A DNA stretch of 64,000 nucleotides from NCBI RefSeq assembly GCF_013167455.1, contig NZ_CP038328.1. One strand, written 5' to 3'. The DNA is from Escherichia coli O157:H7. GTDB lineage: Bacteria; Pseudomonadota; Gammaproteobacteria; Enterobacterales; Enterobacteriaceae. Made by a program: the position numbers. This document shows positions 48,101 through 54,100 of this stretch, one piece after another (the stretch's first letter is position 1; every line of letters begins with the position of its first letter).

Positions 48101-51100
48101 CGCAGTTTAAGGCGCTGCGTGAGCAGGCGTTAAAACTTGCTGAAACACAGTTTACTGCGAGTGATGCCGCCAGTGGGCAGAGCTTTCTGGCAATGGCTGG
48201 TTTTACTCCGCAGGCCATTCAGGCCGCATTGCCCGGTGTTCTTAATATGGCGCTGGCAGGTGGCGTCGAACTCGGCGAGACGGCTGATATAGGCTCCAAT
48301 ATCCTCACACAGTTCAACCTGACAGCCGATCAAATGGACCGGGTGGGCGATACGCTGACAGCAGCATTTACCCGGACCAATACTGATTTACGCGCGCTGG
48401 GCGAAACCATGAAGTATACCGGTCCGGTTGCCGCAAAACTTGGTATCAGTCTTGAAGAAGCGGCGGCCATGGCCGGGATGCTTGCCAATAATGGTCTTCG
48501 CGGAAGCGATGCTGGCACGGCCATGCGCGCAAGTCTGTCCCGCCTTGCATCACCGCCAAAAGCTGCGGCTGATGCACTGAAAGAGCTGGGGGTGTCAGTT
48601 GCTGACGCCAGAGGCAAAATGCGCCCGATGGAGGATGTGCTGCTTGATCTCTATAAGGCGACACAAAAATACGGACAGGTGGACCAGGTCTCCTTCTTCA
48701 AGGACATCGCCGGAGAAGAGGCGTTCGTTGGTTTGCAGACGCTTGTTGCGGCGGCTGGTTCAGGAGAGCTGCAAAAACTGACCAGAGAATTGCAGGGGGC
48801 AAGGGGAGAGGCCGATCGCGTCGCAAAAGTAATGGCTGATAATCTTGATGGGGACCTGAAAAATCTCGACAGCGCATGGGAAGGTCTTCGTATTCGCATC
48901 AGTGATCTGGTTGACGGTCCGCTGCGTTCTGTCACGCAGTGGCTCACGCGGGTGCTTGAAAAAATCACCTCGCTGGCGCAGGCCCATCCGGTACTGACGC
49001 GCCAGCTACTGATAGCAGGCGGTGCGTTGCTGGCAATGACTGCAACGATTGGCTCGTTGTCGCTGGTTATTGGGGTGCTTTACGGGAAGCTGGCCACCCT
49101 GCGTCTTGGTTTTGACATTCTTACCCGGTCAATGAATGTCGTCAGGGTGTTACCTGCGCTATGGGGAATGGTGACGGGTTCCGTTTCTTTACTGGGAGGC
49201 GTTATCGGGGCGTTGTTCAGTCCGGTTGGTCTTATCGTGGCTGCGCTTGCCGGAGCTGCCGTTCTTATCTGGAAATACTGGGATCCTATCAGGGCTTTCT
49301 TTGCCGGGGTGTTCAGCGGGATTATGGAAAGGCTGACCCCGTTGCGCGACACCTTTGAACGGTTTGGCCCTGTTTTTGACGTAATCGGAAGCGGTTCAGC
49401 CAGGTGTTTAACTGGTTTAAATCGCTGCTGTCACCGATGGAGTCCAGCAAGGAAACGCTGGATAAATGTACCAGTGCTGGCGAGGTATTCGGTAACGTTC
49501 TTGGTGGTGCGTTACAGCTTGTTCTGACGCCTGCAAAAATGTTGCTGGATACGCTGGCGTGGATACTTGAAAAACTCGGTGTGCTTCCGGATGAAGCGGA
49601 AAGGGCGCGCAAGAAAATCGAAGACGCACAACGTGCGGCCATTCTTCAGGACAAGGTTGCTCTGTTTCAGGGAGACATTGCGAAAATCAATCCGCCGAAG
49701 TCTGCGGGAAATAGCAATGGCACCGGAGATGATAAACCCAAAGACAACAAACCTCTCACAGACAGCAATACCGGCACGCTACGCAGACTCAGCAAAATTG
49801 CTGATAACACAGGTAAGCTGGTTGATGAGACAAAAAAACGCATTGGCCCCGGCGATATTGTCTTTAAGAACCTGCCCCGCGCACTTGCTGTTCGTGGGGA
49901 GTGGCAGGAGCGGAAGATTGCGCAGGTCAGTAAGCCTGCCCCCGCAATTAATATCACACCCGTGGTCCCGGCTCCGCTGCCTCCGGCGCTGGTCCCTGTT
50001 GTTGCGGCCAGCTCCCGCCCGGTGGTGGAGGCCATACGATCGCCAGTGGCATCAGTTCCTGCAACTTCCCGTAACCGGGAGCCTGTTGCCTCCGGATTTG
50101 GCGGTGAAATTCATGTTCATCTGCATAACGTTGTTACGCAGAATCCCCGCGAACTGGCGAAACTGGTCGGCGAAATGGTCAGGGCAGAAATGGAACGGCG
50201 CGCCCGTGCCAGGCGTGGCAGTTTTTACGATAAAGATTGAGGAGTCATGGCCATGATGATGATCTACGGCATGTTTGTTTTTGAGCTGCGCACGTTGCCG
50301 CATCAGCAGTTACAGCAAAACAAAAGCTGGCGACATGTGAAAAATGAACGCGTTAACCGTTCAGCAAGCTGGCAGTATATCGGTGCAGGTGATGATCGCA
50401 TCGTTCTTTCTGGTGTTCTTTATCCTGAGATTACTGGTGGCGAAGTGTCGCTGTCGTTGTTGACCACGCAGGCATATACAGGACGTCCTTGGCCTTTGAT
50501 TGATGGCGTCGGGCAGATTTACGGCATGTATGTCCTGACCGGAACGAATACGACCCGCTCCGAGTTTGATCGCTACGGTAAGGCGAAAAAGATAGAATTT
50601 TCACTGACTCTTGAACGCTGTGATGAGGATTTGCGGGAGCGCCTGCAATCCTCATCGTTCAGCGATATGCTGTCCGGCTTCAAAGATAAGGTGACATCAT
50701 CCCTTAATAGCGCGGCCAGCTCAGTTAAGGGGCTGCTCTGATTTAACGTATGTCGCCAATTTCCTGATGAAGGTGACTGGCGACTTGCTGTTGTATGTCC
50801 TTCTCAGAAAATTGTTTTTGAATAACAAATAACAGGATTTTATAATCTCTTAACCTTATAACATGTGTGGTCTGAAATAATAATTAAGGAGATTATCGTG
50901 CTATCTTACTTAATGGCAATTCACTTTGTTTTATTTGGAAACTCTACTAATTTAAAAAACTTCTGGAAACATGAAGTAATTCGGCGGAAACGTATGGATA
51001 TCTGGAGGCTTTTAAGAGAGAAAAAGCAGCGTAACCGGAATTTCCTTTTCTGGTGGCGGTTGGCTAACGAAATGTATATTAATGGTAATAAATTACATAA

Positions 51101-54100
51101 GAAAGCAGCCAAAAAGTTAAACAGTAAAATAATTAACAAGTTTGGTTGTGAAATAGGATTGGGCGCAAATATTGGAAAAGGGTTGACAATTCCCCATCAT
51201 GCTGGAATTGTTGTTCATTTTGCTGTTGATGCGGGTGAAAATCTGGTATTACGACAGAATACTACCATTGGACAGATAGATGGTGATATGCCTAGTTCAA
51301 GAGTAAAAATTGGTAGTAACGTTGATATCGGAGCTAATTGTTGCATCATTGGATTATCACGTAAAATTGGGGATAATGTAAAAATAGGTGCAATGTCTTT
51401 TATAAATAAAGATATACCATCAAACTGCACATATATAACTAAAAAGAGTGGTGTTGTATTGTATAAATAGAGTACATAAAGCCATCGATATTTCTGTCGA
51501 TGGCTTTTTCTTTTTATTGTGGGGCGACTGGCCACTCAACATCCGCTGCTACTGTTGTATCAACACGATTCAACAATACCCGATATGTCTTCCATGCAGC
51601 CAGTAACGATGCCTCTTCCTCCGTCGCAATATCCAAATCTACGGCATCCTGAAGTGGCGCAATATGCTCACTGGCTACCTGCATCAGGCTGTTTTTTGTT
51701 TCTTCTGCCTCCCGTACCCGAAACAGTTTTTCTGCTTCTGCATCTTTCGCCCAGGATGTGCCGTTCCACTTCTGACACTCTCCATCCGGCGACAACCAGG
51801 TAACATTTTCCGGTAACGGACCGAGTTCAGAAATAAATAACGCGTCGCCGGAAGCCACGTCATAAACCGTTTTACCCCGATGATCTTCAACGAGATGCCA
51901 CGATGCCTCATTACTGTTGAAAACAGCCACGAAGCCAGCCGGAATATCTGGCGGTGCAATATCGGTACTGTTTGCTGGCAGACCTGTATGAGGCGGAATG
52001 TATGCGTCACCTTCACCAATAAATTCATTAGTTCCGGCCAGCAGATTGAACCGCCCCGGGAATCCTGGAGACTAAACTCCCTGAGAAAGAGGTAAACAGG
52101 ATGACTAAAAATACACGTTTTTCCCCCGAGGTCCGTCAACGGGCAGTCCGTATGGTTCTGGAAAGTCAGGGCGAATATGACTCACAATGGGCGGCAATTT
52201 GTTCCATTGCCCCAAAGATTGGCTGTACACCAGAGACTCTGCGTGTGTGGGTTCGTCAGCATGAGCGGGATACCGGGGGCGGTGATGGTGGACTCACCAC
52301 CGCTGAACGTCAGCGTCTGAAAGAGCTGGAACGTGAAAATCGTGAACTGCGCCGCAGTAACGATATCCTTCGCCAGGCTTCCGCTTATTTTGCGAAGGCG
52401 GAGTTCGACCGCCTCTGGAAAAAATAATGCCGCTGCTGGATAAGCTGCGTGAGCAGTACGGGGTCGGACCGGTATGCAGTGAACTGCATATTGCCCCGTC
52501 AACGGATTACCACTGTCAGCAACAGCGACATCATCCGGATAAACGCAGTGCCCGTGCGCAGCGCGATGACTGGCTGAAGAGAGAGATACAGCGCGTATAC
52601 GATGAAAATCATCAGGTGTACGGTGTGCGTAAAGTCTGGCGCCAGTTGTTACGCGAAGGTATCAGGGTGGCCAGATGTACAGTGGCGCGCCTCATGGCGG
52701 TTATGGGACTTGCCGGTGTTCTCCGGGGTAAAAAGGTCCGTACTACCGTCAGCCGGAAAGCCGTTTCCGCAGGCGACCGCGTAAACCGTCAGTTCGTGGC
52801 AGAACGTCCTGACCAGCTGTGGGTGGCTGATTTTACTTACGTCAGCACATGGCAGGGCTTCGTCTATGTGGCGTTCATCATTGATGTGTTTTCCGGATGT
52901 ATCGTGGGGTGGCGAGTCTCATCGTCTATGGAAACGACATTCGTGCTGGATGCACTGGAGCAGGCGTTGTGGGCCCGTCGGCCGTCCGGCACAGTCCATC
53001 ACAGTGATAAAGGTTCTCAGTATGTATCACTGGCCTATACGGAGCGACTAAAAGAAGCAAAACTGCTGGCATCAACAGGGAGTACAGGTGACTCGTATGA
53101 CAATGTATTTTATTAGTTCACATACAATTATCAGATTATTCTGGGAATAAGGTCTGAATATTCTTTTTTATTTTATAAAAATTGCATTCAACTCCGCTAG
53201 GCTGATTAGCCTGGTATGTTTCCTTGATGCTAACGGTATTGAAGGGGAGGTTGTCCTCTGGCCATTCGGCCATCCAGTAGGCAAATGCTGGGTTGCGCTT
53301 TATGAGTGCTAGCCCAGCCAGAAAGGCCGCGCGTTGCGCGCGGCTGCGTTCGGAGGCTGGCAGGCTATCGAGGTAATTGCACGCCTCCTGTTCACTCTTG
53401 ACGGCGGCGGGCTTCAGATAGAAACTTATCCGTCTGGTTGGTGTCGTCATTGGTTTACTCCTTGTTCATTGCGTACAACCCATTAACCAGAGCAAACTGT
53501 GGCACCCCGTCCGCGATGAAAGTCGCATTAACTCCGCAGGCTTCGCGGATAGCGGTTGCCACAATCTCCGCCCCGCCACCGACAACCATCACCCGCCCGT
53601 AACCCGAAAAAACCGCCAGCGCGCGGATCACGCGTTGTTTCAGTGTTTCTTCCTTTTCACGAATAACCGCCATCAGGCTGGCGTAATGCGCGTCATTGTG
53701 GATGTGCTGGCGCAGCCAGGCTTCATCATGGCGATGTTCGATAATGGTATTGGCGATGTGGTGACTGGTGCGCATACCGTTAGTGGCCATCACCGACAGT
53801 ACGGCATCGGCCATCAGAGAAACGCCTACGTGTGGATCGCAAAACACCTGGCTGATACCTGCCAGTTGCCCCTGAACCTTTGCCACATCCAGCGTGGTTC
53901 CGCCCAAATCCACAATCAGCAGGGATTCAAACGGACTCATGTCAGCCAGTGCCTTAAAGCCAGCAGGAATGGATTCAGGCATAACCCGTACGTTACGGAT
54001 AGTGAATGCTTCGCCGTTCTGGTACTCCACCGGGCGCATGACGTTCGCTTTTTTGCGGTTGATGTTGGCCATGTCCGGCTGTGCGTTTGTATCGAAATAC

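Follow-up and report, generated by a model that had tools for sequence, protein, structure and literature searches.

Why should the remains of a P2-type prophage carry an intact, AT-rich acetyltransferase gene next to its tail fibre functions, and on what would the encoded enzyme act? These questions are raised by a stretch of 64,000 nucleotides from Escherichia coli O157:H7 (the window, whose positions are used for all coordinates unless another element is named), in which a gene annotated as a serine O-acetyltransferase lies between the tail gene U and an oppositely oriented tail fibre assembly gene (tfa). The original prediction held that this gene encodes a WcaB/CysE-like acetyltransferase with its own ribosome-binding site (RBS), located at the accessory-gene site of P2-type genomes, and it offered polysaccharide O-acetylation by lysogenic conversion, xenobiotic acetylation and receptor-modifying exclusion as possible roles. 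What it had observed was confirmed, and its interpretation is partly supported. We give a probability of roughly 0.55 to the reading that the gene is prophage cargo (a moron, in the sense of Hendrix and co-workers) whose product would be a WcaB-like left-handed beta-helix (LbH) O-acetyltransferase modifying an envelope glycan of the lysogen, with lipopolysaccharide (LPS) as the likeliest target.

The assignment of the protein to a subfamily, as proposed originally, yielded a neighbourhood but no membership. The nearest NCBIfam families are EpsC (76.2 bits, cut-off 150), cysE (TIGR01172; 62.4 bits, cut-off 210.65, E 4.8e-17, with 36.6 bits against 397 for the long form NF008349) and WcaB (TIGR04016 / NF007564; 55.8 bits against a cut-off of 196 and 54.4 against 194.65, for a gene that lies in a prophage and not in a wca cluster), so that the protein stays below every curated equivalog cut-off. 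Among the 23 NCBIfam families matched at E <= 0.01 there is no Vat/CatB-type xenobiotic acetyltransferase, and with this the xenobiotic option loses its footing. PHROGs assigns the protein to phrog_2154 (2.9e-87), in the category of function unknown, and PADLOC-DB 2.0 returns 0 families at E <= 1. In Pfam, the window protein alone gives a marginal hexapeptide match (Hexapep_2, i-E 0.0031) and no match to SATase_N, most homologues have precomputed PF00132/PF14602 matches, and no alignment to a PDB sequence begins before query residue 52. A model computed with AlphaFold2 from 36 homologues (predicted local distance difference test score, pLDDT, 84.7; predicted template-modelling score, pTM, 0.82) contains five helices (residues 2-82, about 80 helical residues) followed by beta coils, and serine acetyltransferases (SATs) account for 50 of the 50 matches listed when it is compared with the PDB by Foldseek (query-normalised TM-scores of 0.45-0.71). 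The protein is accordingly modelled as a helical N-terminal domain followed by an LbH, that is, with a serine acetyltransferase fold, much as the WcaB/CysE-like description had anticipated.

Does the serine specificity come with the fold? Residues were mapped through a HMMER alignment to Yersinia pestis CysE (3gvd), ungapped over query residues 82-138, and their conservation was scored in 36 diverse homologues; the roles of the CysE residues are those known from published structures of the SATs of E. coli and H. influenzae.

E85, equivalent to CysE Asp143, the catalytic acid: D/E in 36/36 homologues.
H100, equivalent to CysE His158, the catalytic base, in an LbH loop: H in 35/36 homologues.
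P99, at the position of CysE Asp157, which binds the serine amino group: variable in the 36 homologues.
S134, at the position of CysE Arg192, which binds the serine carboxylate: variable in the 36 homologues.
R135, at the position of CysE His193, which binds the serine carboxylate: variable in the 36 homologues.

The positions of Arg192 and His193 fall, across the homologues, within a variable, indel-rich loop. The family has motifs of its own (FWWRLA, IRQNTTIG and IGDNV.IGAMSF, the segment GAMSFINKDIP being also family-specific), together with an invariant K183. Judged from these alignments, the catalytic machinery of an LbH O-acetyltransferase appears to be present and the serine-specific determinants do not, and because the catalytic residues are kept and the serine-binding ones are not, the databases very probably misname the protein as a "serine O-acetyltransferase". 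Its architecture, which resembles that of WcaB, points instead to a sugar hydroxyl as the acceptor.

Comparison with known systems places the protein among several of them and inside none. With WcaB (colanic acid) and EpsC it has in common a short SAT-like architecture, in which a helical N-domain precedes an LbH with the active-site region G-x-[DE]-I ... H-H-x-G-I-V-I, but it remains below their cut-offs, lies outside any polysaccharide cluster and has its own motifs. CysE has the same general fold and the same type of catalytic pair (Asp/Glu-His), but the protein lacks equivalents of Asp157 and Arg192/His193, the greater part of the N-terminal domain and the tail that binds CysK; binding of CysK by CysE depends on a C-terminal Ile, and the C-termini of the homologues vary and are rarely Ile. 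NeuO, from prophage CUS-3 of E. coli K1, is the nearest characterised analogue: it is likewise prophage cargo and a soluble, acetyl-CoA-dependent LbH O-acetyltransferase with a catalytic histidine, and by modifying the polysialic acid of the capsule it lowers susceptibility to the phages that use this polymer (PMC3046976, PMC13001214). It belongs, however, to another LbH subfamily (similar to OatWY and to the maltose and galactoside acetyltransferases, MAT and GAT) with a catalytic His/Trp pair; its crystal structure is published (PMC3046976), and no polysialate O-acetyltransferase appears among the 33 PDB sequence matches or among the 50 fold matches listed. NeuO also has an RLKTQDS heptad domain and a phase switch made of a heptanucleotide variable-number tandem repeat (VNTR), whereas Tandem Repeats Finder detects no tandem repeat in 50600-51700, for which reason phase variation of the NeuO kind was rejected for this gene. 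With neither a sequence match nor a VNTR, the protein is best regarded as lying outside the NeuO family. Finally, the Oac proteins of Sf6, D3 and phiV10 resemble the proposed case in outcome, namely a prophage-encoded LPS O-acetylation that changes the serotype and blocks superinfection, and prophage-borne acetyltransferases are common (PMC13123978); but Oac is an integral membrane protein of the acyltransferase-3 family, with an unrelated fold and usually encoded beside int/att, while the protein considered here is a soluble LbH enzyme encoded beside fibre genes.

At the level of the DNA, ORF calling (ORF, open reading frame) delimits a mechanical frame of 50865-51470, whose supported start is the GTG at 50898, given that AAGGAG precedes it by 6 bases, that PGAP uses the same start in identical genomes and that the P1-like copies described below have an ATG at the same codon. 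The frame is intact and its product has 190 residues. With its own RBS, as originally noted, a terminator and a plausibly placed promoter, the gene would form a self-contained unit.

50898..51470, plus strand: gene for the 190-residue acetyltransferase with predicted SAT fold and LbH, PGAP "serine O-acetyltransferase", WP_000954203.1 (ORF, RBS, annotation, profile and model evidence).
50886..50891, plus strand: RBS AAGGAG, 6 nt 5' of the GTG (read from the sequence).
50818..50846, plus strand: sigma-70 promoter-like site TTGAAT-17 nt-TATAAT, 52 nt 5' of the start codon (consensus scan, 10/12 matches).
51478..51517, plus strand: intrinsic terminator, AAAGCCATCGA / TCGATGGCTTT stem then TTCTTTTTAT (terminator scan and inverted-repeat search, 100% complementary).
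50790..51510, no strand: AT-rich island, GC about 0.33-0.36, holding the promoter-like site, the gene and the terminator (composition profile).

The terminator hairpin (51478-51507) is the strongest of 8 terminator-like sites, where 2.2 are expected: the scan counts a 13-pair stem plus a T-run, and the arms form a perfect 11-bp inverted repeat (51478-51488 / 51497-51507) with TTCTTTTTAT next to it. No Rfam family reaches its gathering score inside the unit. The comparison of base composition and codon usage with the flanks bears out the AT-rich stretch described originally, since the gene has a GC content of 0.340 (0.288 at third codon positions, GC3) and the 156-bp spacer ahead of it (50742-50897) one of 0.327, against a window mean of 0.504 and against 0.50-0.58 (GC3 0.43-0.64) in the flanking genes; individual prophage genes have values of 0.499 (U and tfa), 0.538 (FII), 0.562 (T), 0.547 (ParM) and 0.575 (gpA). 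The base composition of the gene is thus foreign to its host prophage, and low GC is typical of the polysaccharide gene clusters of E. coli. Transposition of the island was considered and rejected, as no convincing flanking direct or inverted repeats were found.

The place of the gene is that of cargo. In P2 the order is H, G, a terminator, fun(Z) on the opposite strand and then FI-FII-E-T-U-D-ogr, whereas the intact relative in O104:H4 reads ogr and D (minus), FI-FII-E-T-U (plus), the acetyltransferase gene (plus) and G-H-I-J-W-V (minus). The FI-FII-E-T-U block is therefore inverted in this lineage with respect to P2, in a way that D and FI diverge and the U end faces G, and it is because of this inversion that U, and not FI, borders the acetyltransferase gene. 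Prophages that occupy different positions in the chromosome share the inverted arrangement, in O157, in O104:H4 and in other serotypes, and for this reason it is probably a viable gene order and not a one-off rearrangement. The slot itself matches that of fun(Z) in P2, a dispensable gene of lysogenic conversion, in place (past the terminator of the V-G operon) as well as in orientation (convergent with G), which agrees with the accessory site named by the original prediction. The occupants differ, in that the Fun(Z) protein is unrelated to the acetyltransferase, its gene measures 1587 bp and its other neighbour is FI instead of U. The junction of U, acetyltransferase gene and tfa is 96.7-98.5% identical in O26, O45, O103, O104, O111 and several unserotyped strains. 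Nevertheless, P2 lacks the gene, as do about 94% of the places with this tfa type in E. coli genomes, and on these grounds the protein is not a conserved tail component. NCTC9040, considered as an "empty site" relative, was dropped, being an uninformative, IS1-disrupted P1-like remnant.

The protein has been under long-term purifying selection: against five copies with 88-97% DNA identity, dN/dS is 0.09-0.16, at dS of up to about 0.4. The gene is present in 530 of 5426 complete E. coli genomes, at 600 places, 66 of them on plasmids. Beyond the species, a protein database holds 336 relatives at E <= 1e-5, the named organisms being Enterobacterales, Orbaceae and Pseudomonas, and the names given by the source are all "serine acetyltransferase" or similar automatic ones. 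Searched against plasmids by tblastn, the protein occurs in 495 records, 265 of them conjugative. All four I-complex plasmids inspected (IncI1/B/O, IncI-gamma/K1 and IncK2/Z; MPF_I) carry a homologue of 53-56% identity, located just past repA and a Phd/RelE-type toxin-antitoxin pair. Literature searches by accessions, PHROG identifier and the topics of prophage, plasmid, P2 hotspot and LbH found no functional study of the family, and two papers on P2 hotspots, including that of Rousset et al., do not mention the acetyltransferase.

Which genes keep company with the homologues? The P1-like phages vB_EcoM-Ro157c2YLVW and JL22 have a copy of 91% amino acid identity, convergent with tfa, which stands in place of the greater part of one half of the invertible C-segment; an IncY P1-like plasmid has a 34% identical copy that overlaps a different tfa; Citrobacter phage phiNP shows the order hicAB, sat and then convergent tfa and fibre; and the pairing is also present in a Buttiauxella tail cluster. 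On a larger scale, 80 IMG/VR loci make up 19 clusters at 90% identity, 16 of which have enough downstream sequence, and in 12 of these 16 a convergent tfa lies 4-54 bp away, at identities down to 45%. Two more clusters adjoin fibre genes, one in the order fibre, tfa, a 151-residue protein, acetyltransferase and glycosyltransferase, and the other with the acetyltransferase followed by convergent HtrL_YibB and fibre genes. The divergence of the acetyltransferase is correlated with that of the adjacent tfa (Spearman 0.67, 36 pairs of cluster representatives), and the linkage to tfa is real for phage-borne copies. DNA shared between P2-like and P1-like elements extends from the start codon of the acetyltransferase gene through tfa (91.7% identity) into the fibre tip (80%), as would be left by a gene that travels with a tfa/fibre-tip cassette between both kinds of element, and we read it in this way. 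A different cargo site, not the fibre-adjacent one, is used in the P2-like phage ESSI2_ev040, where a 44% identical homologue follows int and a gene of an abortive-infection family (4416-6471).

Diverged copies also adjoin genes for glycan enzymes: HtrL_YibB (Pfam, 1.7e-76); a phrog_1962 glycosyltransferase (8.1e-100); Glyco_transf_25 between int and fibre in a prophage of Xenorhabdus bovienii; and, in Photorhabdus, a relative of the WaaZ-like transferases of 3-deoxy-D-manno-octulosonic acid (77.7 bits against a cut-off of 200). Such pairs suggest small two-gene cassettes for surface modification. The loci at which diverged copies and LPS-type glycan enzymes were seen near tail fibre genes have, within their own sequences and not in the window, the coordinates 6644-7393, 1591-2445, 6699-7427 and 5504-6412.

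Under the preferred reading, the product would be a cytoplasmic, acetyl-CoA-dependent enzyme, presumably the usual LbH trimer, that acetylates a sugar hydroxyl of a cell-envelope glycan. Its substrate, at the cytoplasmic face of the inner membrane, would be a lipid- or nucleotide-linked sugar or a nascent polymer, the LPS core or O-unit being the likeliest acceptor and enterobacterial common antigen, colanic acid or capsule the alternatives. The lysogen would then display an O-acetylated surface glycan, with altered phage adsorption and antigenicity (i.e., lysogenic conversion), and it might mask the receptor for fibres of the type encoded next door. Both polysaccharide O-acetylation and receptor-modifying exclusion, as originally suggested, are consistent with this context.

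Several observations weigh against this proposal. In a scan with one genome per species, this tfa type lies within 5 kb for only 8 of 80 homologues (39-70% identity), and most homologues are solitary among housekeeping genes, with no glycan genes nearby; the 448 neighbouring ORFs fall into 342 clusters, including foxA, dtpA, icd, cyclic di-GMP enzymes and integrases. A census counts 10,514 places for this tfa type, spread over 4,671 genomes, and 600 for the acetyltransferase gene. Being near-ubiquitous, tfa does not predict the acetyltransferase, while a phage-borne acetyltransferase does predict an adjacent tfa, and this linkage may reflect co-transfer through a recombination handle, or a generic cargo slot at the end of an operon, instead of functional coupling. 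A conserved functional module of both genes is a candidate weakened by the species scan and by the tfa census. Furthermore, the promoter-like site has a suitable position, but such sites are no more frequent in the region than in shuffled sequence (4 found, 4.0 expected), so that the plausibility of a promoter at 50818-50846 is positional and no better than chance, and DNA of 34% GC is typically silenced by H-NS in E. coli. To our knowledge, the published O157 O-antigen repeat has no O-acetyl group, and the LPS target in this strain, if any, is for that reason more likely to be the core or a minor substituent. The authors describing the P1-like phage JL22, in the only paper found that mentions the gene, name it sacF and describe its role as unknown. 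The presence of solitary copies in many genera would imply an acceptor for which no partner gene is needed, such as a conserved region of the LPS.

A further question is whether the gene still does anything in this strain, which depends on the state of its prophage. The segment 50700-51560 is 100% identical to E. coli O157:H7 chromosomes, and the annotation beneath the match in PV15-279 reads phage tail protein, "serine O-acetyltransferase" (WP_000954203.1) and tail fibre assembly protein. Around the gene, the following features were identified, the last five by tblastn with P2 proteins.

50247..50741, plus strand: tail protein gene homologous to P2 gpU (46% identity by tblastn; annotation), which closes the inverted FI-U block.
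51514..52046, minus strand: tail fibre assembly gene of the lambda Tfa type, convergent with the acetyltransferase gene (match to the P2 gpG C-terminus; annotation).
52047..53103, plus strand: truncated, inverted IS629/IS1203-type insertion sequence (IS), 1057/1310 bp (95% identity to the PV15-279 IS1203 copy; ORFs).
44359-45668: second IS629/IS1203-type copy, full 1310 bp, cutting FI (comparison with PV15-279).
45671-46321: FI, 5'-truncated.
46354-46860: FII.
47443-49601: T.
50253-50633: match to U.
51517-51675, minus strand: C-terminus of G.

The IS at 52047-53103 joins the tfa remnant, which has lost its first 15 codons to this IS629-type insertion, to the partition/ParM region, and it marks the loss of everything from the fibre gene H through the portal gene Q: homology to the PV15-279 locus jumps there from 21348 to 37746. 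In comparison with PV15-279, ogr, hok and D are missing in addition to this segment. The tape-measure gene T has come apart into two overlapping ORFs (47401-49527 and 49404-50240); it shows one gap when compared with PV15-279 and four when compared with the 2808-bp T of the O104:H4 prophage, which is intact, and by this split and these gaps it is probably a frameshifted pseudogene. The prophage is, in short, a heavily decayed one of P2 type in which the acetyltransferase ORF is still intact. Three side observations belong to the same locus. The Rfam family IS009 (RF02111) matches 51551-51749 on the minus strand (191 bits, gathering score 117, E 1.3e-47), wholly within the tfa coding sequence and on its strand, and coding DNA of tfa appears to have served as the model for this "sRNA" (small RNA) family. 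The minus strand at 53136-54414 carries parM and a gene for plasmid partition/stability, flanked by the replication gene A and by the portal region (deleted here), at the old/tin hotspot of P2, where about a quarter of P2-like phages have partition systems (Rousset et al., PMC9122126). In PV15-279, a 300-residue macro-domain protein (phrog_2613, 7.1e-149) is inserted between H and tfa (21402-22304); it is deleted from the window and absent from the O104:H4 prophage.

Such decay gives some weight to the best surviving alternative, namely a gene that this strain carries as a silent passenger, kept only for being young and beside an often-recombining tfa and having no current phenotype. FI is truncated, T split, tfa shortened and D, ogr and H through Q deleted, and the points already made on silencing by H-NS and on promoter-like sites at chance level fit as well; so does the ubiquity of tfa, whose best match is 90-95% identical in 3,517 of 4,766 matching records and whose copy in the window is about 91% identical to K-12 tfaQ and tfaR. 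We nevertheless consider it improbable, though not negligible, as the dN/dS values show that selection has long acted on the protein, the reading frame has survived among broken neighbours, and the family is kept across many genera and in every I-complex plasmid examined.

Somewhat weaker is the idea of a gene for anti-phage defence or competition between elements that does not act through surface glycans, whether by acetylating a protein or nucleotide of the invader or as part of an abortive-infection pair. An abortive-infection protein beside int in ESSI2_ev040, hicAB in phiNP and JetD near a Pantoea copy would speak for it, as would the role of P2-like cargo sites as known reservoirs of defence genes (PMC9122126). 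The lack of a PADLOC match, the silence of Rousset et al. on the acetyltransferase and the want of any partner gene conserved across contexts make it unlikely, and we know of no LbH acetyltransferase that acts as a defence effector. Less likely still is the acetylation of some small molecule that is not serine, be it an antibiotic, a toxin, a sugar or a metabolite, after the manner of the xenobiotic, maltose or galactoside acetyltransferases: copies on conjugative plasmids and at solitary chromosomal positions would suit it, and the similarly sized LbH enzymes Maa and LacA match weakly (E 2e-4 and 1.4e-7), but these matches reach 21 bits against 314 and 31 against 347, there is no Vat/CatB-type match, the fold matches listed are to SATs and not to the maltose, galactoside or xenobiotic group, and the N-terminal helical domain is SAT/WcaB-like. 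A genuine serine O-acetyltransferase feeding cysteine synthesis as an auxiliary metabolic gene, as the PGAP and GenBank names have it, fares worst and is very improbable, in spite of the CysE enzymes being the best sequence and fold matches in the PDB, of the E-value to TIGR01172, of the catalytic His/acid pair and of solitary copies in many species that would suit a universal small-molecule substrate, given the cysE scores far below cut-off, the Pro and the variable loop at the serine-binding positions, an N-domain of only about 80 residues with no SATase_N match, and the variable C-termini.

Returning to the proposed modification of an envelope glycan, could it be one and the same activity in phages and plasmids? 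The PilV adhesins on the thin pili of I-complex plasmids bind the LPS of the recipient. It is conceivable, if rather speculative, that the family is a shared self-receptor-masking enzyme of mobile elements that dock through LPS-binding adhesins, comprising phages with Tfa-dependent fibres (P2-like, P1-like and others), in which it is encoded next to the fibre tip, and I-complex plasmids, and that it would O-acetylate a conserved sugar of the LPS core so that carrier cells stop being targets.

The gene is most likely one more example of the well-known class of prophage conversion genes, and the most useful results are perhaps the database name, very likely wrong, the travel of the gene with a tfa/fibre-tip cassette and the homologue in every I-complex plasmid examined. 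It is carried by roughly one tenth of complete E. coli genomes, including the Shiga-toxin lineages O157, O26, O103, O111 and O104, and it is also found on P1-like phage-plasmids and on I-complex resistance plasmids. If it does O-acetylate an envelope glycan, this would amount to a widespread and overlooked surface variation, which would matter for phage typing, phage therapy and serology, and possibly for plasmid mating.

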